Positions 368 to 16,025 are shown, counted from the first letter of the stretch. The stretch is 44,891 nucleotides of DNA from Bacilli bacterium (GCA_035377365.1 DAOSSK010000003.1:1-44891), one strand, 5' to 3'. The notes: a model not told the origin generated them from the sequence alone. Program-made: numbers and translations.

Positions 368-1156
368 TTATACTACCTTCATTTCCTTTAATTTATTAGC
401 CAATTTTACTGCTAAATTTTCGTCTGTATCTTCCCATAATTCTTTATCAGTATTTTTAATTGGTGGGAACATTCTTTCAACTTGTGTTGGTGATCCTTTT
501 AGACCATAATGTGCTTCGTTTTGATCAACCATATCACTAAAATGAATTTGCCTAATTTCATAATCTTTAAACTTTTTACTTCTTCGATAAGAAGGAAGTC
601 TTGGCGTAAAAATACCTTTGTTCACCGCAATTAAACATGGATAATCAATTTCCCAAACTTCTTTTGTACTATCCATATCTACTTGAACGACAATGGATTT
701 TTCTTTGATCTCAATAATTTCATCAACGTAACTTAAATGAGGAATCTTTAAATTCTCTGCAATTTCTGGGCCTACTTGAGCAGTATCGCCATCTGTTGTT
801 TGCTTCCCACAAATAATCAAATCAGCTCCGCCAATTAGTTTAATTCCTTCAGCTAAAGTATAGCTAGTTGCTACAACATCAGCTCCTCCAAATTTACGAT
901 CAGTCATGATTGTAGCATCATCACAACCCATCCATAAAGATTCATTTAAGACTGCTAAAGCTGAAGGTGGTCCCATTGAGATTGTAGCTACATGGGCTCC
1001 ATTGAACTCTTTAATTCTTAAAGCTGTTTCAATCGCATATAAATCATAAGGATTCATCTTGGCGTTTCGACCATCTCTAATTAAGTTACCTGTAATGGGA
1101 TCTATTTCTACCTCAGTACTTGCAGGTACTTGTTTAATACATACTATTATTTTCAA
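368..1156 (-). CDS. etfB: Electron transfer flavoprotein beta subunit
   Basis: The N-terminus MKIIVCIKQVPASTEVEIDPITGNLIRDG...MNPYDLYAIETALRIKE is typical of EtfB/FixA. At 262 aa the size fits. An ATGA overlap joins it to the upstream gene. Confidence 0.85.
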   Translation of the reverse strand: MKIIVCIKQVPASTEVEIDPITGNLIRDGRNAKMNPYDLYAIETALRIKEFNGAHVATISMGPPSALAVLNESLWMGCDDATIMTDRKFGGADVVATSYTLAEGIKLIGGADLIICGKQTTDGDTAQVGPEIAENLKIPHLSYVDEIIEIKEKSIVVQVDMDSTKEVWEIDYPCLIAVNKGIFTPRLPSYRRSKKFKDYEIRQIHFSDMVDQNEAHYGLKGSPTQVERMFPPIKNTDKELWEDTDENLAVKLANKLKEMKVV

Positions 1157-1887
1157 CTTTCTTCCTCCTTAATGTACTCTATTGTTTTCTTATATAATAA
1201 CTCTTGATCTTTTTTATTATCAAAACCATGGTCTCCATCTTTGATAATAAAAGAAACCTTATTTTTTAACACTTCTAAATATTTATCGTTATATAACAAA
1301 GGCACAGCTAAATCCTTAGCTCCTTTAATTACATAAGCTTTTCCTTGATATTTACTTGCTAGCTCATACCAATTGTATTTATAACTAGAATCAAACATCG
1401 CTTTCGATAAAGAAAAGTTTAACGCAATTGTGTTACCTTTTTCATCCTTTTCAGCAATCTCATATCTTCTTTTCACAAGCTCATTAATATTACCAGCAGG
1501 ATTCCAAACAACTACCTTTTTTATTCTTGCTTCTTCATGAGCAACTGCTAAAGCTAAAGCCCCACCCATTGAATAACCTAATAAAATAACTTCCTTATAA
1601 CCTAAATCATAAGCATATTTAATAATACATCTAGCATCGCTAAATAGTGTATCAAAAGTAAAATCAGTAAATTCACCATCACTATCAAAATTACCATAAT
1701 AGTCAAATCTTAAAGAAGAGATATCTTCTTTTAATAAAATCCTTGATAAGCTTCGAAACATTCCGTTATGCTCAACTTTATGACCAGTATAGCCATGAAA
1801 CATAATTACTACCTTTTCACTTTCAGCTCTACTGTATATACCTCTTAAAGTATAGGCACCATTTTTTAAATCAACACTTTTTACCAT
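1153..1887 (-). CDS. Alpha/beta-fold serine esterase (cinnamoyl/feruloyl-esterase-like family)
   Basis: It carries the GYSMGG nucleophile elbow. The HGYTGHKVEHNGMF...LRFDYYGNFDSDGEF pattern resembles Lactobacillus cinnamoyl esterases. No signal peptide is present. Confidence 0.65.
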   Translation of the reverse strand: MVKSVDLKNGAYTLRGIYSRAESEKVVIMFHGYTGHKVEHNGMFRSLSRILLKEDISSLRFDYYGNFDSDGEFTDFTFDTLFSDARCIIKYAYDLGYKEVILLGYSMGGALALAVAHEEARIKKVVVWNPAGNINELVKRRYEIAEKDEKGNTIALNFSLSKAMFDSSYKYNWYELASKYQGKAYVIKGAKDLAVPLLYNDKYLEVLKNKVSFIIKDGDHGFDNKKDQELLYKKTIEYIKEEES

Positions 1888-2797
1888 AACTAGCTATTGC
1901 CTTTCTTAAATGTCCATGATTTTTCTCTAAATAATAATCAATTTTTTCCAAAGATTCTTCCTTAGTCAGTAAATGAAAAATAGTTTTTTTCACTGTTTTA
2001 TATTGCTTTAATTTCAAAGCAGCTTCTTCCTTTTCAACTTTTGTAATATCTTGAATAATTGACAATGCTCTTGCGACTAACTTTTCATTTGTAGGGTTAA
2101 CGTCAATCATTAAGTTTTCATAAACTTTACCCATTTGAATCATACTAGCAGTTGAAATCATATTTAAAATCATCTTCTGAGCAGTTCCTGATTTTAGTCT
2201 TGTAGAGCCAGTTAAAACTTCAGCTCCAGTAACAACTTCAATTTTCTTCTTGGCAATCTTACCAATTTCACTATTTAAAGATGTCGCAATTGATGCTGTT
2301 TTAGCCCCAATTTTATTGCCATATTCTATACCAGAGACTACATAAGGGGTTCTTCCACTAGCGCTTAAACCAATTAAAGTATCTTTATTAGACAAATTAA
2401 TTGCTTTTAAATCTTTTATAGCTAGCTCTTTATTATCTTCAGCTCCTTCTACAGCTTTGATAAATGCTTTTTCTCCCCCTGCAATCAACCCTTGAACTTG
2501 CTCGTAATCCACACTAAATGTAGGCGGGCATTCAACGGCATCTAAAATTCCTAATCTTCCGCTAGTCCCAGCGCCGATATAAATTAGTCTTCCGCCTTCT
2601 AGAAAACTTTTCACAACATCATCAATTACTAAAGCAATTTCTTCTAAATGCTTTTCAATTTCATAAGCAACTTGTTTATCTTCCTCATTGATTTTCTTGA
2701 TAATTCCTAAGCTATCTAAACTATCAATATCATAAGTATTCTTATTTCTTTTTTCTGTTGTTAGTTTACTTAAATCAACCATGGCGATACCTTCCAT
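1871..2797 (-). CDS. murQ: N-acetylmuramic acid 6-phosphate etherase
   Basis: It has a SIS domain with the MurQ signature GRLIYIGAGTSGRLGILDAVECPPTF and is about 300 aa. The true start may be the internal Met (MVDLSKL, at 2782). Confidence 0.9.
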   Translation of the reverse strand: MEGIAMVDLSKLTTEKRNKNTYDIDSLDSLGIIKKINEEDKQVAYEIEKHLEEIALVIDDVVKSFLEGGRLIYIGAGTSGRLGILDAVECPPTFSVDYEQVQGLIAGGEKAFIKAVEGAEDNKELAIKDLKAINLSNKDTLIGLSASGRTPYVVSGIEYGNKIGAKTASIATSLNSEIGKIAKKKIEVVTGAEVLTGSTRLKSGTAQKMILNMISTASMIQMGKVYENLMIDVNPTNEKLVARALSIIQDITKVEKEEAALKLKQYKTVKKTIFHLLTKEESLEKIDYYLEKNHGHLRKAIASYGKKC

Positions 2798-3905
2798 AAG
2801 TAATATTTCCTAAAATAGTATTTTCTTTAGCTCCAGTAACTGACTTCAAGTTTCCTGTTTTATAGTTGAAACTTAAATATCCTAAATAAGCAAAGCTTAA
2901 AGCTTCCTTAGCATCATTTTCAATTCCATAATCAGTCCCAGTAACAACTTCAACTCCTAGTCTTTTTCCTAACTCAGATACTACATATTTATTATGTGAT
3001 CCTCCTCCAGTAACTACGACTAAATCAATCTCTTTTAAGTATTTTTCATAGTTATAGACAATAGAATCTACTGTAATATTTGTAACTGTGCAAATAACAT
3101 CTTCCTTACTAAATTGGTCTAAATTGAACTTCTTAACTAAACTTTCAAAAAATGTCTCACTATATTGCTCTCTACCTGTACTCTTAGGTGGAGCTTTTTT
3201 AATAAATTTATCACTTATTAAATAATCATATAAAGGTTTAATAATTATTCCTTTAAAGGCTTTTTTACCATCTTCATCATAAGCCTTGCCATAATACTTG
3301 TGCATAAAGTAATCAATCATTACATTACCTGGACCAGTATCAAAGGCTAAAATTTCATCTTCCTTAGCATCTTTTGGTAAATATGTTAAGTTACCAATAC
3401 CACCAATATTTTGTAAGACGATGTTTTTCTTATTGTTATGATGAAGCAAAAAGTCAGTTTTAGGAACAAGTGGTGCACCTTCACCATCTAAGGCTACATC
3501 TTTAACTCTAAAATTAGATACTGTTGTGATATTTGTCTTAGCTACAATTACAGCTGCTTCTCCTATTTGTAAGGTAGATGCTCTTTGACCTTTTAATCCT
3601 TTAGGATTATGCCAAATTGTTTGACCATGGCTTGCAACTAAATCAATATCATCATAGCTATATTTGTCTTTTAAAACTTCGTCAATTGCATAAACAAAAT
3701 AATCTCCAAGTTCAAAATTCAAACTGCAGATTTCTTCTAGCTTCGCTTGATCGTTATTTAAATTCTTTTTTAGTTTAGCATTGAACTCTTTAGAGTAAGG
3801 ATAAGTAATAAAATTCAAAAGTTGAACTTTTTTACCTTTGATTTCTACTAATGCAGCATCTACACCATCTAAAGATGTCCCACTCATTAAACCGATAACT
3901 TTCAT
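2775..3905 (-). CDS. anmK: Anhydro-N-acetylmuramic acid kinase
   Basis: The N-terminus MKVIGLMSGTSLDGVDAALVE is the AnmK hallmark. At 376 aa the size fits. It overlaps both neighbours. Confidence 0.9.
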   Translation of the reverse strand: MKVIGLMSGTSLDGVDAALVEIKGKKVQLLNFITYPYSKEFNAKLKKNLNNDQAKLEEICSLNFELGDYFVYAIDEVLKDKYSYDDIDLVASHGQTIWHNPKGLKGQRASTLQIGEAAVIVAKTNITTVSNFRVKDVALDGEGAPLVPKTDFLLHHNNKKNIVLQNIGGIGNLTYLPKDAKEDEILAFDTGPGNVMIDYFMHKYYGKAYDEDGKKAFKGIIIKPLYDYLISDKFIKKAPPKSTGREQYSETFFESLVKKFNLDQFSKEDVICTVTNITVDSIVYNYEKYLKEIDLVVVTGGGSHNKYVVSELGKRLGVEVVTGTDYGIENDAKEALSFAYLGYLSFNYKTGNLKSVTGAKENTILGNITYGRYRHG

Positions 3906-4819
3906 ATTTTGCCTTTCTGTTTAGCTAAGTAATATGCTCCATAAATAGGATCAATACTACCTTCTAAATATTTTAACTTTATCTTCTCTTTCTGTAATTT
4001 TTCTAATACTAATTCTTGTAAGATTTTAGAGTTTTTAATATATTCTCCTGTAAATCCTAACACAGCAGTTTCCTTTAATTTTAAGTGCTTTACAAGTAAT
4101 TTGATTGACCTTATGATCCCTTTACTTGCATCATCTAAAATTTCTAAAGCTATTCTATCACCCGCTTTAGCTCCATCAGTAATTAAATAAGCATAACTTG
4201 CAATCTCTTTTTTATCATTGTGATACATAAAGACTCTTAAATCATCAATTGTGTTTAAATTAGTTGCTTTTATCAAAGATTGGGCTAAAGGATAAACTGT
4301 TCCTTTTTCTTCGTAATGCCTAACTGATTTAACAATTAAATCTTGAACAGCGCTAAAGGCACTACCGATTTCATAAATCATATAGCCCCAGCCACCAATC
4401 ATCATTGATTTACCATCTTTATTTAAACCAAAAGAAGCATGACCAGTACCAGAAATAACAACAATTCCTTCTTCATACTCATCTTTTAAATGAGAGTATA
4501 AAGCAATTAAAGTATCAGGGTTTAGTGATACATCAAGATTAGTTTTTGCTTTTAAATTAGAAACTAACCTTTCTAAAGCTTCTTTAGAATTAGCTTTAAG
4601 TCCACTTAAACCAATAACAATAGCTTTTAAGTCATACTCATTTTTAACTTCTTCGTACAACTTATAAACCCCTTCTTCTACATTCTCCAAAGCTGATTTA
4701 ACTGACGCGCTAGATCCTGCCTTAGCTTTTAGTTTCTTTACAATCGTTCCATCTTCTAAAAACAAGGCTAGTTTTGTAGAAGAGCCACCAGCATCAACAC
4801 CTATCATTGCTTTTTTCAT
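3902..4819 (-). CDS. BadF/BadG/BcrA/BcrD-type ATPase sugar kinase. GlcNAc/MurNAc kinase (MurK-like) is the candidate function.
   Basis: It has the N-terminal phosphate-1 motif IGVDAGGSSTKLAL and is 305 aa. It sits between anmK and the GH3 gene. Clostridium acetobutylicum MurK belongs to this fold family. Confidence 0.6.
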   Translation of the reverse strand: MKKAMIGVDAGGSSTKLALFLEDGTIVKKLKAKAGSSASVKSALENVEEGVYKLYEEVKNEYDLKAIVIGLSGLKANSKEALERLVSNLKAKTNLDVSLNPDTLIALYSHLKDEYEEGIVVISGTGHASFGLNKDGKSMMIGGWGYMIYEIGSAFSAVQDLIVKSVRHYEEKGTVYPLAQSLIKATNLNTIDDLRVFMYHNDKKEIASYAYLITDGAKAGDRIALEILDDASKGIIRSIKLLVKHLKLKETAVLGFTGEYIKNSKILQELVLEKLQKEKIKLKYLEGSIDPIYGAYYLAKQKGKI

Positions 4820-7443
4820 TATTCTTCTCCAATAATTTTGAAAACAAATGGTGTTTGCATCTTTAAATAATCTAAACTAAAATCACTCAAAATTGCTCTA
4901 CCAACTACGTTAACTGCTTTATCAGCTTCTAAATCAGTTAGCATAATATTTAATTCGCCAGAATATCTTTTCATTAAATCATTGTCAATTGTAATATCAT
5001 ACTTTGATCTTTTCTCTGTATTATTTGGTGCAATTCCTTTTTCTCCACGATATTTAGTACTGCGAATCATATACTCTGATTGATCAATTCTAACACGATG
5101 GACTTTATTGATAATTTCTTTTTCTTTTTCTGAAATTCCTTTTTTAAGAATTAAAGGTACAGTGAAATATTCTTTTTCTTCTGTTAACTCTTTTAATTCT
5201 TTATCGCTAATAATAGCATCACCAAAACAAATTTTCGAAAAACCTAAAAGTTCCATTTCTTGTTTTTGAAGAAAAACTGGCTTATCTCTCATAGCCTCTA
5301 CTGTAGGTAATCCTAAATATAAAGGAGGCCTTTTGTTTTCTAATGATGCAATATAACCCATAACTTTAAAGCCTAAATTGTTTAAAAAGTTGTTTCTTTT
5401 TTGTACATCTTCGTATTTTAACCCAGTATATTTCTTTGGATAAAAGTTATGACTAACCGTTACTAAAGATAAATCTATTCTTTCTTTTAAGTAATCAACT
5501 AACTCTTCCGTTAAAGTCGAAGCATTAAGTTCAATATCATAACCATCTAAAACTAAATCAACAATATCTTCTTTACTAAAACCCCAATCTAAACGAATGC
5601 GGTCTACACCAAACATCTTATGTTTATCAAAAGTTGGTTTGGAAACATCAACTATTAACTCTAAGCCTAAACTTTTAGCTTTATCCTTAATCGTCAAAAA
5701 CTCATCATAAACATGACTTCCTGCTTCAGGCATATGCATCGATACAAAAACAAAACTAAAGCCATTTGCCTTTAACTTTTCTAAATATGCTAAGTTATCT
5801 TTTAATTTATAATCATCTAAACCTAAATAAACACTAGCACCATATTCTTTGTTTTCCTTTAAAGAAACAGGTAATTTACCTTTTGGTCTAATTTTGCCAT
5901 TTAAATAACTAATTAAAACCTTAATTGAATTAGGTGTGTATTCATATAATGCTAAGTAATTAGGAACTTCCTTAAAGTTTAAAATATCAAAAGGATTTCT
6001 CATACTAATTACATATAGCTTTTTATCTAAACTATTCAATTTCTTTACAAGTTCAATTTGGCCTTGGTTAATTGTAGCATTATATGTACATAAAACTATT
6101 TGTTTATAATCTTGGGTTAATTCCAAATATTTATCAATTTCTTCTTTTGAAGGTTTAATCTTAATTCTATAAGGAACTAAGTTAGGATTATTTTCTAATC
6201 TTACCATATCGTAAATTGAACGATCGTTTTTCGAAAATTCATCTTCGATGATTGTAGAAGCAAATGGGTCAGGAGCTAAAACTAAAGTTTTTAAACTTGG
6301 ATCTACATTATCTCCTTTTACTAGTGTTAATGAATCCGATACAATTTCTAACGCTTTTGCTTTAGTTACTGGGTCAAGTAAGATTTTCTCTTGCTCATTA
6401 TAATTTCTATTAAAAAACTCATTCTTTAATAACTCATATGATTTAGCTTTATATTTTAATATCTTTTCTACTTTTTCATCTAATAAATGTAAAGGAAACT
6501 TTCCGTTCAACACTGCTTCCTTTACAAGCTCAACAGCTTTCATTTGTTTTGCCGGTGTTTGACTAACAAAAACCATATCAAGCCCTGCAAGTAAACCTTC
6601 TAAAACACCTTTAGGTGCTGTAACTGTTTCATCAATGGCTTTCATTTCCATACAATCACTTACAATTAAACCTTTAAAGCCTAATTCTTTCTTCAAAAGA
6701 TCAGTTAAAACTTTCTTTGATAAAGTAGCTGGTCTTTCACTATCATAGGCTTTAAAAACAATATGAGCGCTCATAATAGCATCTAAGCCTGAATCAATTG
6801 CTTTTTTAAATGGATAAAGTTCAATTTTGTTTAAGCGATCTTTTGAATGTTCAATTATTGGCAAGCCTAAATGACTATCAATATTTGTATCTCCGTGACC
6901 TGGAAAGTGTTTCGCAGTTGCAATAATACCTTTTTCTTGTAAACCTTTAATATAATTAATGCCATAACTTGCAACCTCTTTTTCACTGCTTGAATAACTT
7001 CTAACACCTATTACCGGATTATGAGGATTATTATTCACATCTAATACTGGAGCTAAGTTAAAGTTAATTCCTAAAGCTCTTAACTCTTCTCCCATCTTTT
7101 GCCCTACATAATAAGCATTGTTAATATTAGTTGCACCAATTGTCATGGCCCCCGGAAAGAATGTTGCATCATTAAAGATTCTTGTAACCATTCCTCCTTC
7201 TTGGTCAATTGTAATAAAAGGCATAATTCCTAATTGTTTATCTATATTTGTATGGATATCTTTATTTAATTTGTATAACTGTTTTACCGAAGAAATATTA
7301 CGAGAGAATAAAATTACATTTCCGATTTTATAATTTTTAATTAAATGTAATAAATCGTTATTAAACTCCTCGCCATAAAAACCAACGATAAATAATTGGC
7401 CAATTTTTTCTTCTAAAGTTAATTCATGTAATTTTTTCATCAA
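4819..7443 (-). CDS. Bifunctional fusion of a GH3 beta-N-acetylglucosaminidase (NagZ-like, residues about 1-530, nt 5848-7443) and a MupG-like DUF871 6-phospho-N-acetylmuramidase domain (nt 4819-5847)
   Basis: GH3 motifs are KHFPGHGDTNIDSHLGLP and GLIVSDCMEMKAI. The C-terminal part carries DUF871-type motifs: SVYLG, FVSMHMPE, RLDWGF, ELNAST, SHNFYPKKYTGL, GLPTVE and FGDA. There is no signal peptide and no stop or Met at the junction. Confidence 0.8.
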   Translation of the reverse strand: MMKKLHELTLEEKIGQLFIVGFYGEEFNNDLLHLIKNYKIGNVILFSRNISSVKQLYKLNKDIHTNIDKQLGIMPFITIDQEGGMVTRIFNDATFFPGAMTIGATNINNAYYVGQKMGEELRALGINFNLAPVLDVNNNPHNPVIGVRSYSSSEKEVASYGINYIKGLQEKGIIATAKHFPGHGDTNIDSHLGLPIIEHSKDRLNKIELYPFKKAIDSGLDAIMSAHIVFKAYDSERPATLSKKVLTDLLKKELGFKGLIVSDCMEMKAIDETVTAPKGVLEGLLAGLDMVFVSQTPAKQMKAVELVKEAVLNGKFPLHLLDEKVEKILKYKAKSYELLKNEFFNRNYNEQEKILLDPVTKAKALEIVSDSLTLVKGDNVDPSLKTLVLAPDPFASTIIEDEFSKNDRSIYDMVRLENNPNLVPYRIKIKPSKEEIDKYLELTQDYKQIVLCTYNATINQGQIELVKKLNSLDKKLYVISMRNPFDILNFKEVPNYLALYEYTPNSIKVLISYLNGKIRPKGKLPVSLKENKEYGASVYLGLDDYKLKDNLAYLEKLKANGFSFVFVSMHMPEAGSHVYDEFLTIKDKAKSLGLELIVDVSKPTFDKHKMFGVDRIRLDWGFSKEDIVDLVLDGYDIELNASTLTEELVDYLKERIDLSLVTVSHNFYPKKYTGLKYEDVQKRNNFLNNLGFKVMGYIASLENKRPPLYLGLPTVEAMRDKPVFLQKQEMELLGFSKICFGDAIISDKELKELTEEKEYFTVPLILKKGISEKEKEIINKVHRVRIDQSEYMIRSTKYRGEKGIAPNNTEKRSKYDITIDNDLMKRYSGELNIMLTDLEADKAVNVVGRAILSDFSLDYLKMQTPFVFKIIGEE

Positions 7444-7451
7444 TTTTCTCC

Positions 7452-8600
7452 TTAATAAATTAAGTATTTACTTCTTGTCTTACCAAACTTTTTCGTATCT
7501 TCTTTAATCCAAGCTAATTGTTCTTCTAAAGTAAGTAAGTATTTAGATATCTTATCAGTACCAGTATTTAAATCTAGCATCGTTCTTCCGCCTTCTCTCC
7601 AAGGTGCATTTACCTTAAAGTCATTTGGATATAAGTTTCTAATCGTATCAAGCAAAATAAAACCTAATGATACTGACTTTAACTTTTTGCGATCTAAAAT
7701 GTGAATATAAACTCCGCCACACAATAAGTCTTTATTTTTTGAATAAATTGGCGTGAAATATTGCGGTCTAAAATGAACACCATCTATCTTCATACTATTC
7801 AACTTATCTGCTAATTCCTTAGAATTAATATAAGGTGCTCCAATTAATTCAAATGGAGTTGCTGTTCCTCTTCCTTCACTCATATTTGTACCTTCAAAAA
7901 TACAAGTTCCTGGATATAGAATACAACTATTAACTGTTGGTAAATTAGGCGATGGATAAACATATAAAATGTCTAATTCATCTAAATATTTAGTGCGGTC
8001 ATAACCAGCCATCTTAATAACTTCTAAATCACAATCAATTTCGAACTCTTTATTAAACAAATAAGCAAGTTCTCCAATTGTCATTCCATGACGTTGGATT
8101 GTTGGGTAGTAACCAATAAAAGAACGATAATTTATATCTAAAATATTACCTTCATAATCAGAAGCATTAATTGGATTTGGGCGATCAAATACAACAAACT
8201 TCTTACCTTCTTCTTTGCAAGCCATCATTGAATAAGCCATCGTATAAACATAGGTGTAGAATCTTGCCCCTACATCTTGAATATCTATACACAAAATATC
8301 TATTTCGTCTAACATTTCTTTTGATGGTTTTCTTGTATCTCCATATAAAGAATAAACAGTAATTCCTGTTTCCTCATCTACGTAAGTTCCTAAATTAATT
8401 CCTGCCTGTAAGTTTCCTCTTACGCCATGCTCGGGACTAAATAAAGCAACTAAGTTAGTCTTTTCATTTAAAACATCAATTGTAGATTGATATTTTGAAT
8501 TAATACCAGTAGGGTTAGTAATTAAACCTACTCTCTTTCCTTTAAATAAATCTAAGTGTTCATCAATACGATCAATTCCTAATTTAAATTTCATTTTCAT
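7452..8600 (-). CDS. namZ: DUF1343 family exo-beta-N-acetylmuramidase (NamZ/YbbC-like)
   Basis: GLITNPTGIN...IDVL...LVALFSPEHGVRG matches the DUF1343 consensus. It is 382 aa with no signal peptide. Confidence 0.75.
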   Translation of the reverse strand: MKMKFKLGIDRIDEHLDLFKGKRVGLITNPTGINSKYQSTIDVLNEKTNLVALFSPEHGVRGNLQAGINLGTYVDEETGITVYSLYGDTRKPSKEMLDEIDILCIDIQDVGARFYTYVYTMAYSMMACKEEGKKFVVFDRPNPINASDYEGNILDINYRSFIGYYPTIQRHGMTIGELAYLFNKEFEIDCDLEVIKMAGYDRTKYLDELDILYVYPSPNLPTVNSCILYPGTCIFEGTNMSEGRGTATPFELIGAPYINSKELADKLNSMKIDGVHFRPQYFTPIYSKNKDLLCGGVYIHILDRKKLKSVSLGFILLDTIRNLYPNDFKVNAPWREGGRTMLDLNTGTDKISKYLLTLEEQLAWIKEDTKKFGKTRSKYLIY

Positions 8601-9390
8601 TCTCCTTTTCTAATTCATATTTATCGAAATCCTGAATATCATCAGGATTTTTTGTAAGGTATGCATATTTGCCTTTTATCATTCTAAAGTATAAATACTG
8701 AGGTAAACTAATTCCAAATAAACTAAAAAACGAAATAAGTAATAATGATAGCATTGGACTAAGAATTAAACCTAAAACAATTATTAATACTGGTGTTAAA
8801 AAGAAAAAAATCCCTGCTAGCAGTGTTGGTAAAAACAACTTAAAAGACATATAAAAACTAGCTTTAATATAATTCCATTTCGTCATTTGAAAATGGCTAT
8901 AGACAGCCCAAAATGAAATCACAGCTTGAGTTAAGAAAAATAATAAAACCCAATCAAGCCAGTAACCAACGGTATAAACTATCCCTATAAAATCATAAGT
9001 AAAATCTTCATGATTTAAAATCAAACTATAAGTTACTGATGATCCTAATAGAAAGGCATAAACAATTAAAATAAGCAATTCTATAAACCAAAGATCTTTA
9101 AAACTAAACCAAAGATTGGAAAAATAGGTTTTATACAAACCACTCCTTCGATACCCGCTTAAGTCTTTAATCGTTTTAAAACTAGCAATTGAAGTAATAA
9201 TTAATCCCAAAAGCGTTAGTAGAATTGCTAGATAAAAATAAGTCATTTTTTGAGTGGCAATAAATAGCACCCAAAAACCAAAACTCATAGTTATAATTAG
9301 TGAAAGATTCAATAAATTCATTATTATTAAACGATATGTCCATTCAAAAAAGATAAAAGCTTTACTATTGACATACTTTTCTACATCCAT
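8584..9390 (-). CDS. Polytopic membrane protein, DUF624/YesL-like accessory protein of sugar ABC loci
   Basis: It has about six hydrophobic segments. The N-terminal FFEWTYRLIIMNLLNL pattern resembles YesL-type proteins. It is the first gene after a promoter-like site. Confidence 0.5.
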   Translation of the reverse strand: MDVEKYVNSKAFIFFEWTYRLIIMNLLNLSLIITMSFGFWVLFIATQKMTYFYLAILLTLLGLIITSIASFKTIKDLSGYRRSGLYKTYFSNLWFSFKDLWFIELLILIVYAFLLGSSVTYSLILNHEDFTYDFIGIVYTVGYWLDWVLLFFLTQAVISFWAVYSHFQMTKWNYIKASFYMSFKLFLPTLLAGIFFFLTPVLIIVLGLILSPMLSLLLISFFSLFGISLPQYLYFRMIKGKYAYLTKNPDDIQDFDKYELEKENENEI

Positions 9391-9413
9391 AATTAACTCC
9401 TTAAACTCTTTAT

Positions 9414-9442
9414 ATTATACCATACCTAAGGTCAAATAACAA
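9414..9442 (-). promoter_or_regulatory. Sigma-A-type promoter candidate for the DUF624-namZ-nagZ/mupG...murQ unit
   Basis: On the minus strand it reads TTGTTA, a 17-nt spacer ending in TGG (extended -10), then TATAAT. It lies between the upstream terminator and the AAGGAG RBS of the DUF624 gene. Confidence 0.45.
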
Positions 9443-9453
9443 TAAAAGAGAAA

Positions 9454-9487
9454 TAAAAAACCACACGATAAAATCGTGTGGTTTTGT
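9454..9487 (-). terminator. Rho-independent terminator after the Big_2 binding-protein gene
   Basis: A 9-bp GC-containing stem (CCACACGAT / ATCGTGTGG) has a 3-nt loop. A- and T-runs flank it, giving a U-tract on the minus-strand transcript. Confidence 0.8.
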
Positions 9488-9502
9488 TTATATCTTTAAA
9501 TT

Positions 9503-12500
9503 CTATCCGAATTGTGCGATAACCTTTTGTTGCCATGCTGGCATACATTCTGCTACAACTGCTGAGTAGTCTGCTCCTTGACGGATACCTTCTTCAGCTG
9601 GTCTTGCAGCTGATGGATTACCCCAAATTCCGATTACTTCTTCATATGGGTCATACATTACTCTACGTTTGTCATAGAATAGAACACATTCGATTGAGAA
9701 TGGATCATCTAGTCTTAAACTAGCATTTTGACGTCTAACGTCTAATTCAGTTTCTCCAACCATTTCTCCAGCTTCTTTTTGTTTTCTTTCTGTCCATCTA
9801 AATACGTCGTTTAGAGCACGATAAATACCTTCATATGCTACTGCATCATCAGTTAAGCCTGCAGCTGCGTGTTTATGAGTCATATGGTTAACCATAGAGT
9901 AAATTGATCCACCCTTAGTAATAACCTTAGTTTGATCTTTACTCATACTATCTGGATAAGGGAATGGAACGTATCCATATCTTGTACCAGATGGGTCGCC
10001 AGGTGACCACATATCAATTGGCCAACGGTTGTCAGTCTTTACAAACCACATTTCTCCGCCGTCCATAATTGCTTTTTCTGTTCTGAATGCTTCAGTTAGA
10101 GCATCATATGCAGGTGTTGGATCCCAAGCTTGGTGGTTCATATAGATTCTCTTAAGTACGTTAACTACACTTCTTTGGATAGGTCCATCAACGTTAAGTG
10201 AAGCACTTGCAGAGTCAACCATCTTAATACCAGCTACGTTAATCATACCTGCCCAGTAGAAGAATGGTCTACCACTAATAGCATAATAACCTTCACCTTT
10301 TTGGCCGATTGCAACTTGTGCATCTAATACCCATTGTTCGAAATCGCTGTGATGCCAACGATCACTCATGAACATTTGAGCAGGGTTTTCCATTCCAACT
10401 TCTTCTAGTAAGTTAACGTTGTAGAATAAACCACGGTCAATATAGTTAGCTCCATATGTAGAAGTACTCATAGCAAATAAGTTTCCTTTATATGTAGCTG
10501 CTTCTCTTGATGCAGGGTCCATACTATTCTTTCCAAAACGAATATATAAGTCTTGTACTGGGAATAATGCTTGACTTGCAGAGAATTGATTTAACCATGT
10601 AGTAGTTGCGATATAGTAGTCTGCTCCACCTTTTGTATTATTTGCATTATTGTTAATCCATTGAACTCTCGCTGGTCCCCATGGAGCTTCTTCTGGATAA
10701 GCAACTACGCTAATTGTACAGTTATAAGCTTCTTCAACTTCACGCCAAGCTGCTTGTTTAGCAGTCTTGTCAGCGCCTGCATATTCTGGTAAGAATGGAT
10801 CTTGATCAAATAATGCATGGCTTGCGTTCATAATTGTAATATTATATCCATTTAAGTTAATTGGATCTGGATCAACTGGTGGCTTAGCAGCTCTAATTTG
10901 ATATCTTTGTGTAACTGCATATGTACCAGGGTTTTCAACACTTGGTGCACGTGCAATGATATAGAATGATTTTCCTTCACCAGCTGCATGAACAGTTACT
11001 GAACCATTTTCATCAACAGAAGCATAAGCATCTTGTTGTGATGACCAAACTACAGTTTGATTTGCACCTGCTGGTCCAACGTCAGCTGTAAATTGATATG
11101 TTTCGCCAATGAAAACATCTGGATAACCGTTAATAGTAATGCTTGTTGGTTCTGGTGTTTTAATTTCTTCTACAAATTTTTCTTTTATTGTAATATCAAT
11201 TGTAGCTGTTAAACCTTCAACTACAGTTGATGTAGCTGTAATAGTTACAACTGTTCCAATATCATCATCTGTTCCGTTGCAGATAAGTGTACCATCTGTA
11301 CGAACATCTACTAAAGGATTATTTGATGACCAAGTAACAGTGCTATATGAGAACGATGGTTTACTTGAAACTGATAATTTTAAACTTCCGCCTTTAGTTT
11401 CAATTTGCGGATCATCGTTTGGTGCACTAATTACTAATTCAGTTGGCATTGGTCTATCAATCAATCTTAATTCAAATGGCTCTGATGTTTCTTCGCCAAC
11501 TTTAGCTGTGATTCTTAATAAACCTGGTTTTAATGCTACAACTCTTAATCTTCCTCTATTAACACCAGTTTTACTTGTTCCATCTGCTGCGATAACGAAT
11601 GTTAATACTTCAGCGATATCTTCTGCTGGAATTTCTTGTTCGTTAGCTTCATAGTTTTGTCCAAGTTCAACTGGATTTTCAGGATCTGTAATATCTTCAA
11701 CTTTGTAAATTACATCTTGAGTAACTGGATCTACTTTATTAGTTTTATAATTAGCAGAATACTCAACTGCAATTTCTTCTCTCTTTAATGTGTATCCTGG
11801 TTCAGATACGAATAATGGTAGAATTGATTCATCCATAACTTCAAAAGTTGCGCTTAAATCAGCTACTTGATTTCCTTCTGCGTCAGATACAATTGCGTGA
11901 ATAGTTGCAATACCTGCTTCAAGAGCTTCTACAGCACCTTCAGCGCTTAATGAGATAACTTCAGTATCTTGAGTATTCCAAGCAACTGTTTCACCTTCTC
12001 TTAGGTTTTCTACAGTAGCAGTAAATTTTCTTCCAATAAAGATGTATACATTGTTTTCAGGATCTTCTTCAGGAACACCTGCGATTGCACGTTCACCTAG
12101 TCCTTTTTCTGTAACTGTAATTGTAACAGTCTTAGAAAGTTCACCAGATGTGATTGTAATAACTGCAGTTCCTGCTGCATGTCCAGTAACTTTTCCACTA
12201 TCGTCTACTGTTGCAACATCTTCATTGTTTGATGCATATGCTAATGTTGCTGTTTGTGGAGCTCCAGTTTGATCTTTCACTTGTGCTCCAAGTGTGTAAG
12301 TTCCGCCAACAACAATTGTTGCTGCTTCCTGTGGAACGGTAATAACTAATTGTACTTCTTCTTCCGGCAATACAGTAATAGTAAGCTCTGCTTGTTTTGC
12401 ACCTGCTTTAACGGTGATAACAGCTGTTCCTTCCGCAACTGCTGATACTAAACCACTAGCACTAACAGTAGCAACTGCTTTATTATCACTGTCGTAAGTC

Positions 12501-12688
12501 ACTTTTTTATCAGTGGCATTGTCCGGTTTTACAGTAGGATTAATTTGATAAGTTTGTCCTACTTGTAATTCTTTGGCATTTGATCCAAGCTCTACTGATG
12601 TAACTTCGATAACTTTGTCATCACAACTACATCCAAATAGTAATAAGCTCAAACCAAATACTAAAAGCAATGATAACCATTTTTTCAT
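9503..12688 (-). CDS. Surface lipoprotein with about five Big_2 (bacterial Ig-like) domains followed by a family-1-type ABC extracellular solute-binding domain
   Basis: The lipobox is LLLFGC at the end of the signal peptide. Repeated units such as VTSVEL...YQINPTVKPDNATDKKVTYDSDNKAVATVSASGLVSAVAEGTAVITV are typical of Big_2. The C-terminal roughly 450 aa (NGYNITIMNAS...YYIATTTW...) looks like a sugar SBP fold. Confidence 0.7.
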   Translation of the reverse strand: MKKWLSLLLVFGLSLLLFGCSCDDKVIEVTSVELGSNAKELQVGQTYQINPTVKPDNATDKKVTYDSDNKAVATVSASGLVSAVAEGTAVITVKAGAKQAELTITVLPEEEVQLVITVPQEAATIVVGGTYTLGAQVKDQTGAPQTATLAYASNNEDVATVDDSGKVTGHAAGTAVITITSGELSKTVTITVTEKGLGERAIAGVPEEDPENNVYIFIGRKFTATVENLREGETVAWNTQDTEVISLSAEGAVEALEAGIATIHAIVSDAEGNQVADLSATFEVMDESILPLFVSEPGYTLKREEIAVEYSANYKTNKVDPVTQDVIYKVEDITDPENPVELGQNYEANEQEIPAEDIAEVLTFVIAADGTSKTGVNRGRLRVVALKPGLLRITAKVGEETSEPFELRLIDRPMPTELVISAPNDDPQIETKGGSLKLSVSSKPSFSYSTVTWSSNNPLVDVRTDGTLICNGTDDDIGTVVTITATSTVVEGLTATIDITIKEKFVEEIKTPEPTSITINGYPDVFIGETYQFTADVGPAGANQTVVWSSQQDAYASVDENGSVTVHAAGEGKSFYIIARAPSVENPGTYAVTQRYQIRAAKPPVDPDPINLNGYNITIMNASHALFDQDPFLPEYAGADKTAKQAAWREVEEAYNCTISVVAYPEEAPWGPARVQWINNNANNTKGGADYYIATTTWLNQFSASQALFPVQDLYIRFGKNSMDPASREAATYKGNLFAMSTSTYGANYIDRGLFYNVNLLEEVGMENPAQMFMSDRWHHSDFEQWVLDAQVAIGQKGEGYYAISGRPFFYWAGMINVAGIKMVDSASASLNVDGPIQRSVVNVLKRIYMNHQAWDPTPAYDALTEAFRTEKAIMDGGEMWFVKTDNRWPIDMWSPGDPSGTRYGYVPFPYPDSMSKDQTKVITKGGSIYSMVNHMTHKHAAAGLTDDAVAYEGIYRALNDVFRWTERKQKEAGEMVGETELDVRRQNASLRLDDPFSIECVLFYDKRRVMYDPYEEVIGIWGNPSAARPAEEGIRQGADYSAVVAECMPAWQQKVIAQFG

Positions 12689-12737
12689 GATTTTTCCTCC
12701 TTGTTTGATTTGCTTTAAGTCCTACGACCTCATTATT

Positions 12738-12766
12738 ATTATACTAAATAATACCTAAAATATCAA
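12738..12766 (-). promoter_or_regulatory. Near-consensus sigma-A promoter for the Big_2 binding-protein gene
   Basis: On the minus strand it reads TTGATA, a 17-nt spacer, then TATAAT. An AAGGAGG RBS lies 7 nt before the ATG at 12688. Confidence 0.6.
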
Positions 12767-12792
12767 GAGTTTTTTGAAAACGATATCTAGTT

Positions 12793-13749
12793 TTAAATCT
12801 TTTTATCGTAAGTTGTATAACTCTTCCAAACCTCAAATCCTAAACGATTATAAACGTCTAAAAGGCCTGTCCAATCAATTAAAAGTTCTGTGCATCCACG
12901 ATCATGTAAGTCTTTAATTGCAATTTTCAATAAATTACTACCGATTTTTTGTCTCCTATGGTCACTATCAACACCTAAAGGTCCAAGTGCACCTAGATTA
13001 TTGAACTTTTGATACCAAGTAATATGATAAGGGAATACTGGAACTTTTGTATCACTTAACCTTACAAAACCAACAACTTGATCTTTATCTAAGCAAATTA
13101 TATAATCCTTACCAAATATTCCTGTCTCATAATAATCTTGGAATTCAAATTCCCATCTTCCAGGAAAACATTTCTCAAAAAATGCTTTAGTAGCTTTATA
13201 ATCCTTTTTCTCAAAATAACGATATTGATATTTTTCCATATTCTCAAAATGTTCAATTACATCTTTTTGGTAATGGTAGCATACCATATCATGAGTAGGC
13301 CCTAAATTGTTATAACCAATTTTTTCTAAAAAGTTTGTTGTTAGATGATTGAAATCAACCGGAACTCCTGGAAAGAAATTATTAATATCTTTTCCAATCC
13401 AAATAGTCTTTTTACCCAATTTCTTAAAACCAGCTTCTACTTTTTCAAAAAGAGTAGTGGCAATTTTTTGCTTACGACATTTTCTCTTTACATAAAACAA
13501 ACTAATAAAGCCAATATCGTGATATCTTTTAATCATATCATTCATAAACTCTTTAGAAATAATAAAACCAACAACTTCATCTCCTTCTAATGCTACAAAA
13601 GAATTCTCTTTAAGAACATATTTGTTCTCAGTAACATTTTGTTTGAAAATAAAATCAGAAATAGGATACATTCCAAGTAAATCATCATTCCATAATTCTT
13701 GGATTAAATGGTAATCTTTAAATTGTTTAAAATTTTTATACTCTATCAT
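12793..13749 (-). CDS. Tandem-GNAT N-acetyltransferase (GlmA-like glucosamine/glucosaminide N-acetyltransferase is a candidate)
   Basis: It contains two acetyl-CoA-binding-type segments (RKCRKQKIATTLF and HRRQKIGSNLL) in a 318-aa protein. It overlaps the GH3-NagB gene by 4 nt. Confidence 0.6.
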   Translation of the reverse strand: MIEYKNFKQFKDYHLIQELWNDDLLGMYPISDFIFKQNVTENKYVLKENSFVALEGDEVVGFIISKEFMNDMIKRYHDIGFISLFYVKRKCRKQKIATTLFEKVEAGFKKLGKKTIWIGKDINNFFPGVPVDFNHLTTNFLEKIGYNNLGPTHDMVCYHYQKDVIEHFENMEKYQYRYFEKKDYKATKAFFEKCFPGRWEFEFQDYYETGIFGKDYIICLDKDQVVGFVRLSDTKVPVFPYHITWYQKFNNLGALGPLGVDSDHRRQKIGSNLLKIAIKDLHDRGCTELLIDWTGLLDVYNRLGFEVWKSYTTYDKKI

Positions 13750-16025
13750 TTATTATCTCCATATGCAGCATCATCGATAATTACAGTAACATTTGGATGC
13801 TTATGTAAAATGCTTGCCGGAAAATCTATAGATACTTTCTTAGATAAAAGTTTATTAACTGCATCTTGCTTTCCTTTTCCACTAATTACCATCAAAATTG
13901 CTTTTGCATCCATAATATTCTTAATTCCCATCGTAATTGCATACTTAGGAACTTCATCAATTGATGCAAAAAATCTCTTATTATCTTCTCTTGTTTTCTC
14001 AGCTAACTTAACTACAAATGTTTCTTGAGTAAAGGCAGTTCCTGGTTCATTAAAACCAATATGTCCATTACCACCAATTCCTAATAACTGTAAATCAACA
14101 GGATTTTTCTTTAATAAATCATTATACTTTTTACAGTTAGCTTCTAAGTCATCTCCTTCAGATGAAGGTAAATGAGTATTTGCTTTTTTAATATCAATGT
14201 GTTTAAATAAGTTTTCATTCATATAAGAATAATAACTTTGTTCATGATTCTTATCTAACTGGCAATATTCATCTAAATTAAAACTCTTTATATCTTTAAA
14301 AGAAATCTCCTTAGCTTCATACTTTTTAATTAGATTTTTATAAGTACCCAAAGGACTTGAACCAGTAGCTAAACCTAAATTAGCTTTAGGGTTTTTCTTA
14401 ACAACATCAGCTATTATTTCAGCGGCCTTTTTACTCATTTCTTCATAGTCTTTAACTTTAATAATTTTCATATTTCCTCCTTCTAATTTAATCGGCAAGT
14501 TTCCTTTAAACTTACCGCTATATATTAATTTTACTAAACTTTTCAAAGAAAGTAAAGTTGCTTCATATAAGCAGATATAGCTCTCAACATTTTCTAAATG
14601 TAAGATATCATAAGGTGATCTCATACTAACTACAATTGTTTTATTTGGATCTAGGACTTGCCAAACTTTAGTTTGATAATCCCCCTTAGTTACATTGTAA
14701 GTACAAAAAATTACTTTATCTGCTTTTTTAATTTCATCCTTAATTAACTTATAATTAATAAATTCTTGGTTTATTACAACTTCATTACAATCTAAGAAAT
14801 CTTTTAAAGTAAAATAATCATTTTCTTTGTTATCAACTAAACTAAATAGTTTAATTTCTGGAAAGATTGCAAAAATCTTTTCTTGTTTTTTTATTGGAAC
14901 TAGCCCCTTATCTTTTACTAAAGTGATTGATTCTAAAGCAAACTTTTTTGCTAGTTTAGATTTTTCTTCCTTTTTAATAACACTTAAATTGTTTTCAAAA
15001 GCTAAATCTTTTTCCAAATAAATTTCTTTATATTCTAAAATCTTACCTACTGCTTCATCTACTCTTGAAAGAGGAATTTCTCCTTCTTCCACTAAACTAA
15101 CAAAAGTATTATAGATTTCTTTTTGTTCATTTAAATCGGCCTTACCGCAGAAACATAAAATATCATTTCCCGCTAAGACTCCTTTCTTGACAATCTCTTT
15201 TATACTATAGTTACCCCAAATAGCTTTCATTGTTAATGAATCAGTTACAACTAGTCCTTTAAATCCTAACTTTTCTTTAAGAAGTTTAGTAATAATGTTA
15301 TAAGACAAACTAGCAGGATTGTCTTTATCTAAACATTGATAAACAATATGCGACATCATTATTCCATTAGCGCCATTTTCAATAGCTTTTTTAAAAGGAT
15401 AAAGTTCTACTTTTTCAATTTCTTCTAAAGACTTATCTACTACTGGTAAACCTAAATGACTATCTACATTCGTATCACCATGACCCGGAAAATGTTTAAC
15501 CGTTGCAATTAGCTTAGCATCTTTAAAACCTTGACTTGCTTTTAAAACATATCTTGAAACAATCTCTGGATTATCAGAATAACTTCTTGAGTTAATTACA
15601 GGATTATAAGGATTATTATTAACATCTGCAACAGGAGCAAAGTTAATACTAAAACCTAAATGTTTTAAGTCCCTGCCTGCCCCTTTATATAACTCATATG
15701 GATCACTTCCATTAGCCGCAAAACCCATCGCAGAAAGAAGTGGTGTTATTCCTTTTTCAATTCTTTGAACTGGTCCACCTTCTTGGTCTAAAGCAATAAA
15801 TGGCCTAATCTTTTTATTTTGAGAAATCTTGCTATTTAATTTACTTACTTGCTTTAAAGAAGTAATGTTTCTTTTAAATAAAATCAAGCCTCCAAGCTCT
15901 AACTCATTTAAAAGATAATCTACTTGTTTATTATAACTAGTTCCATGAAAACTAAACATAAGCATTTGCCCAACTTTTTGTTTTAAACTTAAATCTTTTA
16001 GCTTCATCAAATCCTCCTTAAACAA
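13746..16025 (-). CDS. nagB: Fusion ORF of a GH3 beta-N-acetylglucosaminidase (nt 14472-16025) and glucosamine-6-phosphate deaminase NagB (nt 13746-14471)
   Basis: GH3 motifs are KHFPGHGDTNVDSHLGLP and GLVVTDSLTMKAI. The C-terminal 241 aa are MKIIKVKDYEEMSKKAAEII...LGLATGSSP...FNLDEY...LLGIGGNGHIGFNEPGT, a full-length NagB. There is no stop between the two parts. Confidence 0.85.
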   Translation of the reverse strand: MFKEDLMKLKDLSLKQKVGQMLMFSFHGTSYNKQVDYLLNELELGGLILFKRNITSLKQVSKLNSKISQNKKIRPFIALDQEGGPVQRIEKGITPLLSAMGFAANGSDPYELYKGAGRDLKHLGFSINFAPVADVNNNPYNPVINSRSYSDNPEIVSRYVLKASQGFKDAKLIATVKHFPGHGDTNVDSHLGLPVVDKSLEEIEKVELYPFKKAIENGANGIMMSHIVYQCLDKDNPASLSYNIITKLLKEKLGFKGLVVTDSLTMKAIWGNYSIKEIVKKGVLAGNDILCFCGKADLNEQKEIYNTFVSLVEEGEIPLSRVDEAVGKILEYKEIYLEKDLAFENNLSVIKKEEKSKLAKKFALESITLVKDKGLVPIKKQEKIFAIFPEIKLFSLVDNKENDYFTLKDFLDCNEVVINQEFINYKLIKDEIKKADKVIFCTYNVTKGDYQTKVWQVLDPNKTIVVSMRSPYDILHLENVESYICLYEATLLSLKSLVKLIYSGKFKGNLPIKLEGGNMKIIKVKDYEEMSKKAAEIIADVVKKNPKANLGLATGSSPLGTYKNLIKKYEAKEISFKDIKSFNLDEYCQLDKNHEQSYYSYMNENLFKHIDIKKANTHLPSSEGDDLEANCKKYNDLLKKNPVDLQLLGIGGNGHIGFNEPGTAFTQETFVVKLAEKTREDNKRFFASIDEVPKYAITMGIKNIMDAKAILMVISGKGKQDAVNKLLSKKVSIDFPASILHKHPNVTVIIDDAAYGDNK
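14469..14481 (-). promoter_or_regulatory. Internal Shine-Dalgarno (AGGAGG) plus in-frame ATG at the GH3/NagB junction
   Basis: The minus strand reads AAA TTA GAA GGA GGA AAT ATG AAA ATT. AGGAGG lies 4 nt upstream of the Met that begins the NagB domain. Confidence 0.6.

Follow-up and report, generated by a model that had tools for sequence, protein, structure and literature searches.

What would a bacterium that likely has no cell wall do with a large set of genes for taking cell walls apart? The question is raised by a 44.9-kb stretch of DNA from a Bacilli bacterium (GCA_035377365.1, DAOSSK010000003.1:1-44891; called the window below), which has about 31% G+C and holds nearly every gene on its minus strand. 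An original prediction had described at 1871-16025 a cytoplasmic, regulator-free set of enzymes for the catabolism of N-acetylmuramic acid (MurNAc) and 1,6-anhydro-MurNAc, fed by ATP-binding cassette (ABC) importers and lacking the phosphotransferase system (PTS). That 14-kb span is too short. The set is rather likely to be the downstream third of a one-directional island of about 40 kb for the import and degradation of peptidoglycan fragments, with genes for a putative LctBCD lactate dehydrogenase at one end and for LysA at the other. As to its purpose, the balance of the evidence favors nutritional scavenging of foreign peptidoglycan over recycling.

Pfam and NCBIfam domain searches of all window reading frames of at least 80 amino acids, to which searches of solved structures (PDB) were added, bore out every enzyme claimed for the set. 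For comparison, 80 related loci (individual loci carry L numbers) were retrieved with the NagZ-MupG protein and mapped by using the proteins of the window. The sugar enzymes and the membrane protein encoded with them are as follows.

1871-2797, minus strand: MurQ, MurNAc-6-phosphate etherase (SIS family); TIGR00274, 373.4 bits, cutoff 302, residues 12-301
2775-3905, minus strand: AnmK, anhydro-MurNAc kinase; PF03702 over residues 1-370 of 376; NF007148, 431.9 bits, cutoff 387
3902-4819, minus strand: MurK-like BadF-family kinase; PF01869; PDB 8zo3, residues 3-301 against 2-303, E 9.4e-24
4819-7443, minus strand: NagZ (two-domain GH3) fused to MupG (GH170), 874 amino acids; Pfam; NF003740, 219.5 bits, cutoff 207
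7452-8600, minus strand: NamZ (GH171) exo-beta-N-acetylmuramidase; PF07075 and PF20732 full length, 277.7 and 163.9 bits
8584-9390, minus strand: DUF624/YesL-like membrane protein with six helices, whose gene opens the MurNAc operon; six hydrophobic segments
12793-13749, minus strand: tandem (two-domain) GNAT, GlmA-like; best PDB match 5kf1, residues 7-316 against 3-313, E 3.8e-36
13746-16025, minus strand: second NagZ (GH3) fused to NagB, glucosamine-6-phosphate deaminase, 759 amino acids; Pfam; TIGR00502, 289 bits, cutoff 237

The best solved relative of the BadF-type kinase, matched over its full length, is 8zo3, which has the PDB title 'MurNAc/GlcNAc kinase' (GlcNAc, N-acetylglucosamine). 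By similarity, the window protein is a predicted MurNAc/GlcNAc kinase of the Clostridium acetobutylicum MurK type. The closest solved relative of the GNAT is titled just 'Predicted acetyltransferase' in the PDB, and we take it to be C. acetobutylicum GlmA. A GlmA-like GNAT would N-acetylate the glucosamine (GlcN) residues of de-N-acetylated peptidoglycan. The protein at 8584-9390 has weak homology (E 9e-7) to a Pfam-confirmed DUF624 protein at the equivalent position of L030, and the position of this gene is kept in 20 loci.

NagZ enzymes are recognized by an Asp-His dyad motif, KH(F/I)PG(H/L)Gx4D(S/T)H, and a nucleophile Asp. Both GH3 domains retain the motif as KHFPGHGDTNxDSH (KHFPGHGDTNIDSH at residue 178 of NagZ-MupG and KHFPGHGDTNVDSH at residue 177 of NagZ-NagB), and the nucleophile context GL(I/V)V(S/T)D reads GLIVSD and GLVVTD in the two domains. 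The second NagZ domain scores 198.1 bits with NF003740, just under the cutoff of 207. Within NagZ-MupG, PF19200 (MupG_N) covers residues 535-754 and PF05913 (MupG_C) residues 765-869; its GH3 part matches 6k5j and YbbD in the PDB, and its MupG part matches 2p0o (E 5e-33). Assembly error was rejected as an explanation for the two fusions. Four independent Joint Genome Institute (JGI) metagenome contigs carry both, with gene calls of 873 and 753 amino acids from starts slightly downstream (a fifth contig is incomplete), and RNA contigs are free of indels across 1-20000. A protein identical to the NamZ of the window is encoded on 5 JGI digester contigs.

The enzymes were also said to lack signal peptides. 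The N-termini quoted in support are exact, and none includes a hydrophobic signal segment. The NamZ N-terminus, MKMKFKLGIDRID, has no hydrophobic segment, unlike the secreted founding enzyme of B. subtilis. The possibility that missing signal peptides are an artefact of start-codon choice was rejected, as the same start residue is found in homologues from about 70 loci.

The absences reported earlier are upheld as well. No PTS domain (PTS_EIIC), no HTH_6/RpiR domain of the MurR type, no amidohydrolase (nagA) and no ABC_tran domain was found in the frames searched, and the only DNA-binding fold in the window is that of the antitoxin already noted, which is of the MazE/AbrB type. In the murQ operons of E. 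coli, B. subtilis and S. aureus, PTS MurP and the RpiR-family regulator MurR stand alongside, whereas the window has neither. The missing ATPase, which had also been pointed out, is normal, because CUT1 systems share one MsmX/MsmK-type ATPase.

In S. aureus, mupG-murQ-murP-murR likewise places MupG (GH170) next to MurQ, but there PTS MurP makes MurNAc-6P-GlcNAc (PMC6262408), whereas here MupG is fused to NagZ and no PTS component is present in the window or in the inspected Acholeplasma-like loci. Either the substrate of the MupG domain comes from a kinase, which would phosphorylate MurNAc-GlcNAc, or the domain has another specificity in the Acholeplasma-like clade. The catalytic residues of the MupG family are unknown (PMC6262408).

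Further genes of the island encode the predicted importers and a probable set for stem peptides and residual glycan.

9503-12688, minus strand: lipoprotein of 1061 amino acids, three Big_2 Ig-like repeats and a C-terminal CUT1-type oligosaccharide-binding domain; lipobox LLFGCS, Pfam, AlphaFold2 (AF2)
16064-18323, minus strand: CUT1-type ABC permease pair; BPD_transp_1 twice; adjoins GH3/NagB in relatives
18326-30058, minus strand: DUF5696 surface protein, Yip1, secreted TPR protein, second permease pair, and membrane-anchored binding protein of 1086 amino acids; Pfam
30051-31913, minus strand: GH20 hexosaminidase, cytoplasmic, whose gene starts the long importer transcript; Pfam; RNA contig end at 31832-31932
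32706-38211, minus strand: GHL10, second GNAT, AmiE/PBP4B-like serine hydrolase, M19 dipeptidase, LysA; Pfam

The claim that ABC systems feed the enzymes is supported by the Big_2 lipoprotein encoded beside them. An AF2 model of its residues 493-1061 (569 residues; predicted local distance difference test score, pLDDT, 88.9; predicted template-modeling score, pTM, 0.88) has as its top Foldseek matches the oligosaccharide substrate-binding proteins 5ysf, MalE, GacH and GltA (probability 1.0, target TM 0.58-0.66). These matches span binders of sophoro-oligosaccharide, maltodextrin/acarbose and lacto-N-tetraose. A sequence search of the C-terminal half against the PDB gave no match, and the binding domain is shown by the predicted fold alone. 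By that fold, the lipoprotein is an oligosaccharide-binding protein, and the permease pair at 16064-18323 is its probable partner. The 1086-residue anchored protein carries SBP_bac_1, and Pfam recognizes four permease genes, so that two binding proteins match two permease pairs in number. The order of this twin importer cassette is kept in Haloplasmataceae and Izemoplasma (L030, L031, L034 and L036), where it abuts NamZ directly on the upstream side. The predicted binding-protein fold and the two permeases of a CUT1 (MalFGK2-like) importer are both present; a MalK/MsmX-type ATPase was not found in the window. YejBEF-YepA of A. tumefaciens (PMC9790009) is a precedent in which an ABC transporter replaces AmpG/PTS for peptidoglycan fragments, but it is a different ABC system from CUT1 and serves a recycling pathway in a walled Gram-negative bacterium.

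The genes at 32706-38211 probably handle the stem peptide and the remaining glycan, including conversion of meso-diaminopimelate (meso-DAP) to lysine. LysA scores 385 bits with TIGR01048 (cutoff 298). The AmiE-like protein is nearest to PBP4B, and AmiE-like genes lie beside NamZ or NagZ in 22 loci.

At the opposite end of the island, MurQ is followed by an esterase and by the genes of a lactate dehydrogenase.

1153-1887, minus strand: cytoplasmic alpha/beta-hydrolase carboxylesterase; Pfam Hydrolase_4; 7q4h and feruloyl/cinnamoyl esterases are the best solved relatives
368-1156, minus strand: LctB (EtfB); Pfam ETF; NCBIfam EtfB, 240 bits, under the 445-bit cutoff
1-366, minus strand: LctC (EtfA with an N-terminal ferredoxin domain), 5' part, continuing beyond the window; Pfam ETF and Fer4

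A 64-kb contig of the same organism with an identical NamZ (L081) was used to read past the window edge. Its full-length LctC (400 amino acids) matches Acetobacterium woodii LctC (7qh2_A) with E 1e-131, and the next gene encodes an LctD of 463 amino acids that matches 7qh2_C with E 6e-172. EtfB, EtfA with a ferredoxin domain and a GlcD-like LctD are thus encoded together, the composition expected of an LctBCD-type electron-confurcating lactate dehydrogenase. Because MurQ frees D-lactate, such an enzyme would be the matching sink. The link between MurQ and lactate dehydrogenase recurs in 22 loci, and the EtfB gene follows MurQ and the esterase in 15. Homology to the A. woodii enzyme (7QH2) is full length for LctD and LctC, including the ferredoxin domain on EtfA, but the A. 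woodii genes occupy a lactate-utilization operon with a permease and a racemase, whereas here they form the tail of the MurNAc operon, and the presumed substrate is D-lactate. The esterase gene directly follows MurQ in 23 loci, and its product possibly strips O-acetyl groups off MurNAc. In the Haloplasmataceae locus L030, a MurR gene sits in the esterase slot.

Beyond lctD, from L081:20991 onward, lies the gene for a surface protein of 2550 amino acids with Big_2 and Flg_new repeats. An X17 RNA contig (X numbers denote sequencing runs) extends from the MurNAc operon into this gene.

Many metagenomes from sludge and digesters contain the stretch, and parts of it also occur in about 18 RNA-labelled runs, which come from nine studies. 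Metatranscriptome contigs of three runs (X17, X26 and X27, from two studies) span the whole island at 99% identity or more. RNA contigs break at common intergenic sites (9381-9516, 31832-32124 and 39167-39284), the first of which surrounds two signals.

9485-9457, minus strand: intrinsic terminator (13-bp), 3' of the Big_2 binding-protein gene
9442-9414, minus strand: extended -10 promoter of the MurNAc operon, after the terminator

RNA contigs end around this terminator and promoter at 9381, 9395 and 9397 on one side and at 9478, 9516 and 9648 on the other. One X17 contig starts at 9395 and runs for 13.8 kb through the entire MurNAc operon to beyond lctD. Contig depths, taken as a crude guide to expression, are given for each run.

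X17: MurNAc operon 254, binding protein 315, importer 74, AmiE-LysA unit 27, neighboring housekeeping genes 46-68
X26: MurNAc operon 20-30, binding protein 600-1100, importer 127-222, AmiE-LysA unit 25, neighboring housekeeping genes about 31
X27: MurNAc operon 8-20, binding protein 269, importer 26, AmiE-LysA unit 7-10, neighboring housekeeping genes 16-34

DNA contamination is an unlikely source of these contigs, given depth steps of 3- to 40-fold at terminators and promoters and the flat depth of 22 in a library labelled METAGENOMIC (X25). The data indicate that the island is expressed in situ as at least four transcription units. The Big_2 binding protein is expressed very strongly, its gene having the highest RNA contig depth in the locus. 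The description of the locus as regulator-free therefore holds in cis but not overall: depth ratios between transcription units vary 5- to 30-fold between samples, which suggests regulation from elsewhere, and the island is probably regulated in trans. An Rfam search found no riboswitch or leader in the island, its only hits being a signal recognition particle (SRP) RNA and an L31 leader, both outside it.

Several details of transcription were seen in passing. Within the GH3-coding part of the NagZ-NagB gene, X17 depth rises from 74 to 315 in one step, with contig ends at 15215 and 15221 (region 15100-15225), and a promoter-like site with 10 of 12 matches lies at 15135-15108, about 80 nucleotides downstream of the step. 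An internal promoter may serve nagB, the GNAT and the binding protein here. At 12775-12788, shortly before the -35 box of the binding-protein promoter, the window has a site resembling a catabolite-responsive element (cre) with 1 mismatch. An exact cre-like 14-mer, TGTAAACATTTTCA, closely follows the -10 box of that promoter at L008:6329, L016:6280, L019:5362 and L021:6316. Evidence for a cre/CcpA-type operator was judged too weak, as the four loci with the 14-mer are close kin and the 14-mer is not in the window; the cre-like sites may be an operator for a trans-acting regulator. The small SRP RNA gene (39197-39292, minus strand) is directly upstream of dus, the stop codon of dus overlaps the lysA start, and the ends of RNA contigs fall at 39167-39187. 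Housekeeping genes may share a transcript with the AmiE-LysA unit.

The cytoplasmic enzymes and ABC import had been contrasted with model organisms. The contrast is fair for B. subtilis murQ-murR-murP-amiE-nagZ-namZ (PMC8054146), which has in common with the window MurQ, the AmiE family, NagZ, NamZ and sequential exo-cleavage from the non-reducing end. There, AmiE, NagZ and NamZ are secreted, the MurNAc monosaccharide enters through PTS MurP, and MurR is in the operon; the window has cytoplasmic enzymes and ABC uptake, with neither MurP nor MurR. The window adds AnmK, the kinase, MupG, NagB, GlmA-like GNATs, LctBCD and LysA. As a general statement, however, the contrast is overstated, because cytoplasmic NagZ, NamZ and AmiE with ABC import are usual in homologous clusters of walled Clostridium, Paenibacillus and Bacillaceae.

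Among the 80 related loci, MurQ is found within 10 kb of the GH3 gene in 51, NamZ in 56 and AnmK in 44, and the clustering of these enzyme genes is far beyond chance. In loci of walled Clostridium, Paenibacillus, Sutcliffiella, Heyndrickxia and Tumebacillus, MurQ, AnmK, the kinase, NagZ, NamZ, AmiE and GlmA-like GNATs are linked with CUT1 permeases. NagZ, NamZ and AmiE of these walled relatives also lack signal peptides, as does NamZ in nearly all of the 55 homologues examined. Because walled relatives have the same set, the PTS-free, cytoplasmic, ABC-fed design is a widespread and largely uncharacterized Firmicute variant, and B. subtilis with its secreted enzymes is the exception among these clusters. 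The walled-Firmicute clusters (L033-L080) share with the window the CUT1 permeases, DUF624, NagZ, NamZ and AmiE without signal peptides, the GlmA-like GNAT, the MurK-like kinase, AnmK and MurQ. They differ in having MurR, an ATPase and often PIG-L in cis, ordinary binding proteins of 440-470 amino acids, and hosts with walls to recycle. We take C. acetobutylicum GlmA, with MurK, to be the only characterized parts of such clusters; the characterization of MurK is credited to Reith 2011 in the account given by PMC5790795.

These relatives make recycling the alternative that survives best: the host would keep a thin peptidoglycan, and the island would recycle its own turnover products, as presumably in Clostridium and Paenibacillus. 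Walled Firmicutes do have an equal gene set with cytoplasmic enzymes and ABC permeases, and mraY and murG are present in 75% of 'bioreactor group' Tenericutes genomes (PMC7301438). The best relatives of the locus, however, lie in metagenome-assembled genomes (MAGs) of Acholeplasmataceae and Acholeplasma, at 87-98% protein identity; over the locus as a whole, identities are 93-98% for one Acholeplasmataceae MAG and 83-96% for an Acholeplasma sp. MAG. The 120 proteins returned by a search with AnmK are MAG proteins, and none is a named A. laidlawii entry. Because the nearest relatives are Acholeplasmataceae MAGs and this family is predicted to be without peptidoglycan (PMC10868615), the host is likely wall-less, and an island in a host that most likely makes no wall would serve nutrition rather than recycling. 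The end enzymes (MurQ, NagB, LctBCD and LysA) are all predicted to be catabolic and no gene for UDP-MurNAc salvage was seen in the window, which supports a catabolic reading. Foraging is also a better fit than housekeeping recycling for a pair of importers with very large surface proteins and for the very high transcript level of the binding protein. Recycling is unlikely on these grounds.

Slightly less probable again is that the island serves mainly other GlcNAc-rich glycans, such as chitin oligomers, host or exopolysaccharide glycans, or teichoic-acid linkage units, with MurNAc as a side branch. GH20, the two GH3 NagZ domains, NagB, GHL10 and DUF5696 are general hexosaminide or glycan enzymes, and both binding proteins are without a known ligand. 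Yet MurQ, AnmK, NamZ, MupG, the GlmA-like GNAT, the AmiE/PBP4B-like hydrolase, LysA and the D-lactate sink are each tied to peptidoglycan, and in about 25 loci the peptidoglycan-tied genes are co-transcribed with the importer or next to it.

Anabolic use of imported MurNAc and GlcNAc (in a capsule, a glycolipid or a residual wall, as in the MurNAc auxotroph Tannerella forsythia) is highly improbable: related lineages with incomplete pathways have been proposed to need scavenged muropeptides (PMC10868615) and T. forsythia pairs a non-PTS transporter with MurK and MurQ, but no AmgK/MurU-type salvage gene, Mpl or Mur ligase was seen in the window, and the etherase, deaminase and lactate dehydrogenase of the operon would destroy the sugar. 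T. forsythia murTKQ (PMC5790795) resembles the window in PTS-independent MurNAc uptake, a BadF-family kinase, MurQ and scavenging from neighbors. It differs in that MurT is a secondary transporter and not an ABC system, and that the organism is walled and also directs MurNAc into wall synthesis. The kinase of the window is nearer to the C. acetobutylicum type than to that of T. forsythia.

Scavenging of foreign peptidoglycan thus remains the preferred explanation, and the following points weigh against it. Some Acholeplasmatales and 'bioreactor' Tenericutes retain mraY and murG, and genome surveys caution that the order is mixed (PMC7301438, PMC10868615). The absence of murA-G, mraY and pbp from the host genome, like the presence there of nagA and an MsmX-type ATPase, is assumed. 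The window has no gene for an extracellular lysozyme or amidase that could be a source of fragments. Only a PTS is known to produce MurNAc-6P-GlcNAc, on which MupG acts (PMC6262408), and no PTS was seen here. Contig depth reflects expression only crudely, and a metatranscriptome may include DNA. Finally, the enzyme activities and binding specificities are predictions from sequence or fold.

If scavenging is correct, the route would begin with the autolysins, lysozymes and lytic transglycosylases of other organisms, which would shed glycan oligomers, with or without stem peptides, whose ends are reducing or 1,6-anhydro. At the surface, these oligomers would be captured by the Big_2 lipoprotein and the 1086-residue anchored protein, and the two CUT1 permease pairs, energized by an ATPase encoded elsewhere, would import them. 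Inside, the AmiE/PBP4B-like hydrolase would take off the peptides, and the two NagZ domains and NamZ would alternate in removing GlcNAc and MurNAc from the non-reducing end. The GlmA-like GNAT would re-acetylate GlcN, and the esterase may take off O-acetyl groups. MurNAc and GlcNAc would be phosphorylated by the MurK-like kinase, whereas the anhydro-MurNAc ring would be opened and phosphorylated by AnmK. MurQ would then convert MurNAc-6P to GlcNAc-6P and D-lactate, and LctBCD would oxidize the lactate to pyruvate. A NagA encoded elsewhere would deacetylate GlcNAc-6P, from which NagB would yield fructose-6P and ammonia. The M19 dipeptidase and LysA would reduce the remains of the stem peptides to amino acids, including lysine from meso-DAP. 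We infer the substrates, the order of steps and the roles of the esterase and of a MupG domain working without a PTS.

In about 25 Acholeplasma-like loci (those labelled Acholeplasmataceae, Mollicutes, Tenericutes, 'Bacilli bacterium' or Coprobacillus CAG-type), the genes have one order: DUF5696, two permeases, NagZ/NagB, GNAT, binding protein, DUF624, NamZ, NagZ-MupG, kinase, AnmK, MurQ, esterase, EtfB, EtfA and LctD. In a tree of NamZ, the Haloplasmatales, Izemoplasmatales and Acholeplasma-like group form one clade (SH-like approximate likelihood ratio test, SH-aLRT, 97) nested among Clostridium sequences, consistent with long-term vertical inheritance of the locus during the Mollicute-like radiation. 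RpiR/MurR is found in 19 of the 80 loci (Pfam-confirmed in four), only in walled taxa and Haloplasmataceae and never in Acholeplasma-like loci. The MsmX-type ATPase (16 of 80) and the PIG-L deacetylase (9 of 80) occur in walled taxa only. None of the three is found at the locus in the window or its close kin. The Acholeplasma-like clade is marked by a locus that has lost MurR and the ATPase, by the NagZ-MupG fusion, and by binding proteins that are Big_2-extended or oversized. In walled relatives, a PIG-L de-N-acetylase gene lies between the GNAT and AmiE genes (L033:19517-20218, L040:7050-7757 and L080:9270-9971).

The two fusions differ in age. NagZ-MupG is kept in most of L001-L019 and in L025, L027, L035 and L073, and is split again in L020-L024. 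NagZ-NagB is limited to the window, L001, L016 and L025, and in most relatives (for example, L004, L006, L008, L012, L019 and L021) a GH3 protein of about 500-516 amino acids and NagB are separate neighbors. From this distribution, the GH3-NagB fusion is judged to be recent, and the GH3-MupG fusion older and more widespread.

All the enzymes are of known families and the outline of the pathway is textbook, but so complete a kit is new for the Acholeplasma group. MurNAc use by wall-less Spiroplasma through murP-murQ is already a published proposal (PMC3762197). The Spiroplasma genes (PMC3762197, PMC4607517) share with the island a wall-less Mollicute host and predicted nutrition on MurNAc from other bacteria, but they are a two-gene PTS route for free MurNAc only, with no oligomer import, exo-glycosidases, AnmK, amidase or lactate module. 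Among the papers searched, there was none tying Acholeplasma to MurQ or MurNAc catabolism, none on a CUT1-fed cytoplasmic NamZ/NagZ set, and none on a MurQ-LctBCD operon.

The interest of the island is mainly ecological and evolutionary. Bacterial necromass includes a large pool of peptidoglycan that is broken down slowly and whose consumers in anoxic digesters and sludge are poorly known. In slurry given dead E. coli biomass as a source of 13C, Acholeplasma was the first taxon to become labelled (PMC4628116). If the scavenging explanation is true, a wall-less lineage with a complete, highly transcribed kit would give that labelling a genetic explanation, and a recycling pathway could outlast its wall and turn to foraging. 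The abundant binding protein, the MupG domain working without a PTS and the direct MurQ-LctBCD link are handles for experiments. We also put forward, tentatively and with the odds somewhat against it, a more far-reaching proposal, that free-living, wall-less Acholeplasma-like bacteria are specialized murein eaters. In these bacteria, the recycling island of walled ancestors would have persisted after loss of the wall, while its cis regulator and ATPase disappeared, several of its enzymes became fused and its binding proteins grew larger. In digesters and sludge, they would live largely on wall fragments as a source of carbon, nitrogen, reducing power from D-lactate and lysine, and MupG-NagZ would carry out a PTS-independent, kinase-coupled cleavage of MurNAc-GlcNAc.

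The closest relative, L001 (93-98% identical), has an 800-bp insertion that separates the DUF624 gene from namZ (L001:8040-9989). A short 5' remnant of NamZ, MKFKLGIDCIDEHLDLFK, is followed there by a stop codon, and the next open reading frame begins with a lipoprotein signal, MKKVLKFVLVLFLFVVLVGC, and continues in frame into full NamZ. It may be a surface-anchored NamZ variant or a small lipoprotein gene minus its stop codon.

The island is interrupted by a YafQ/MazE-type toxin-antitoxin pair, which is flanked by the same hairpin terminator, AAAGAGCATAAAATGCTCTTTTT, at 31960-32067 and 32594-32705. The pair forms a separate RNA contig unit (32124-32727) and looks like an inserted cassette. 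On the plus strand at 40529-41148 is a gene for a small secreted protein, MEKRKKLLIIAIFIFLFSAS, with a frameshift at 40588. This region has the highest X27 RNA contig depth in the window (459). An X26 RNA contig with one extra A has an intact frame of about 206 amino acids, and the frameshift is either strain variation or an assembly error.

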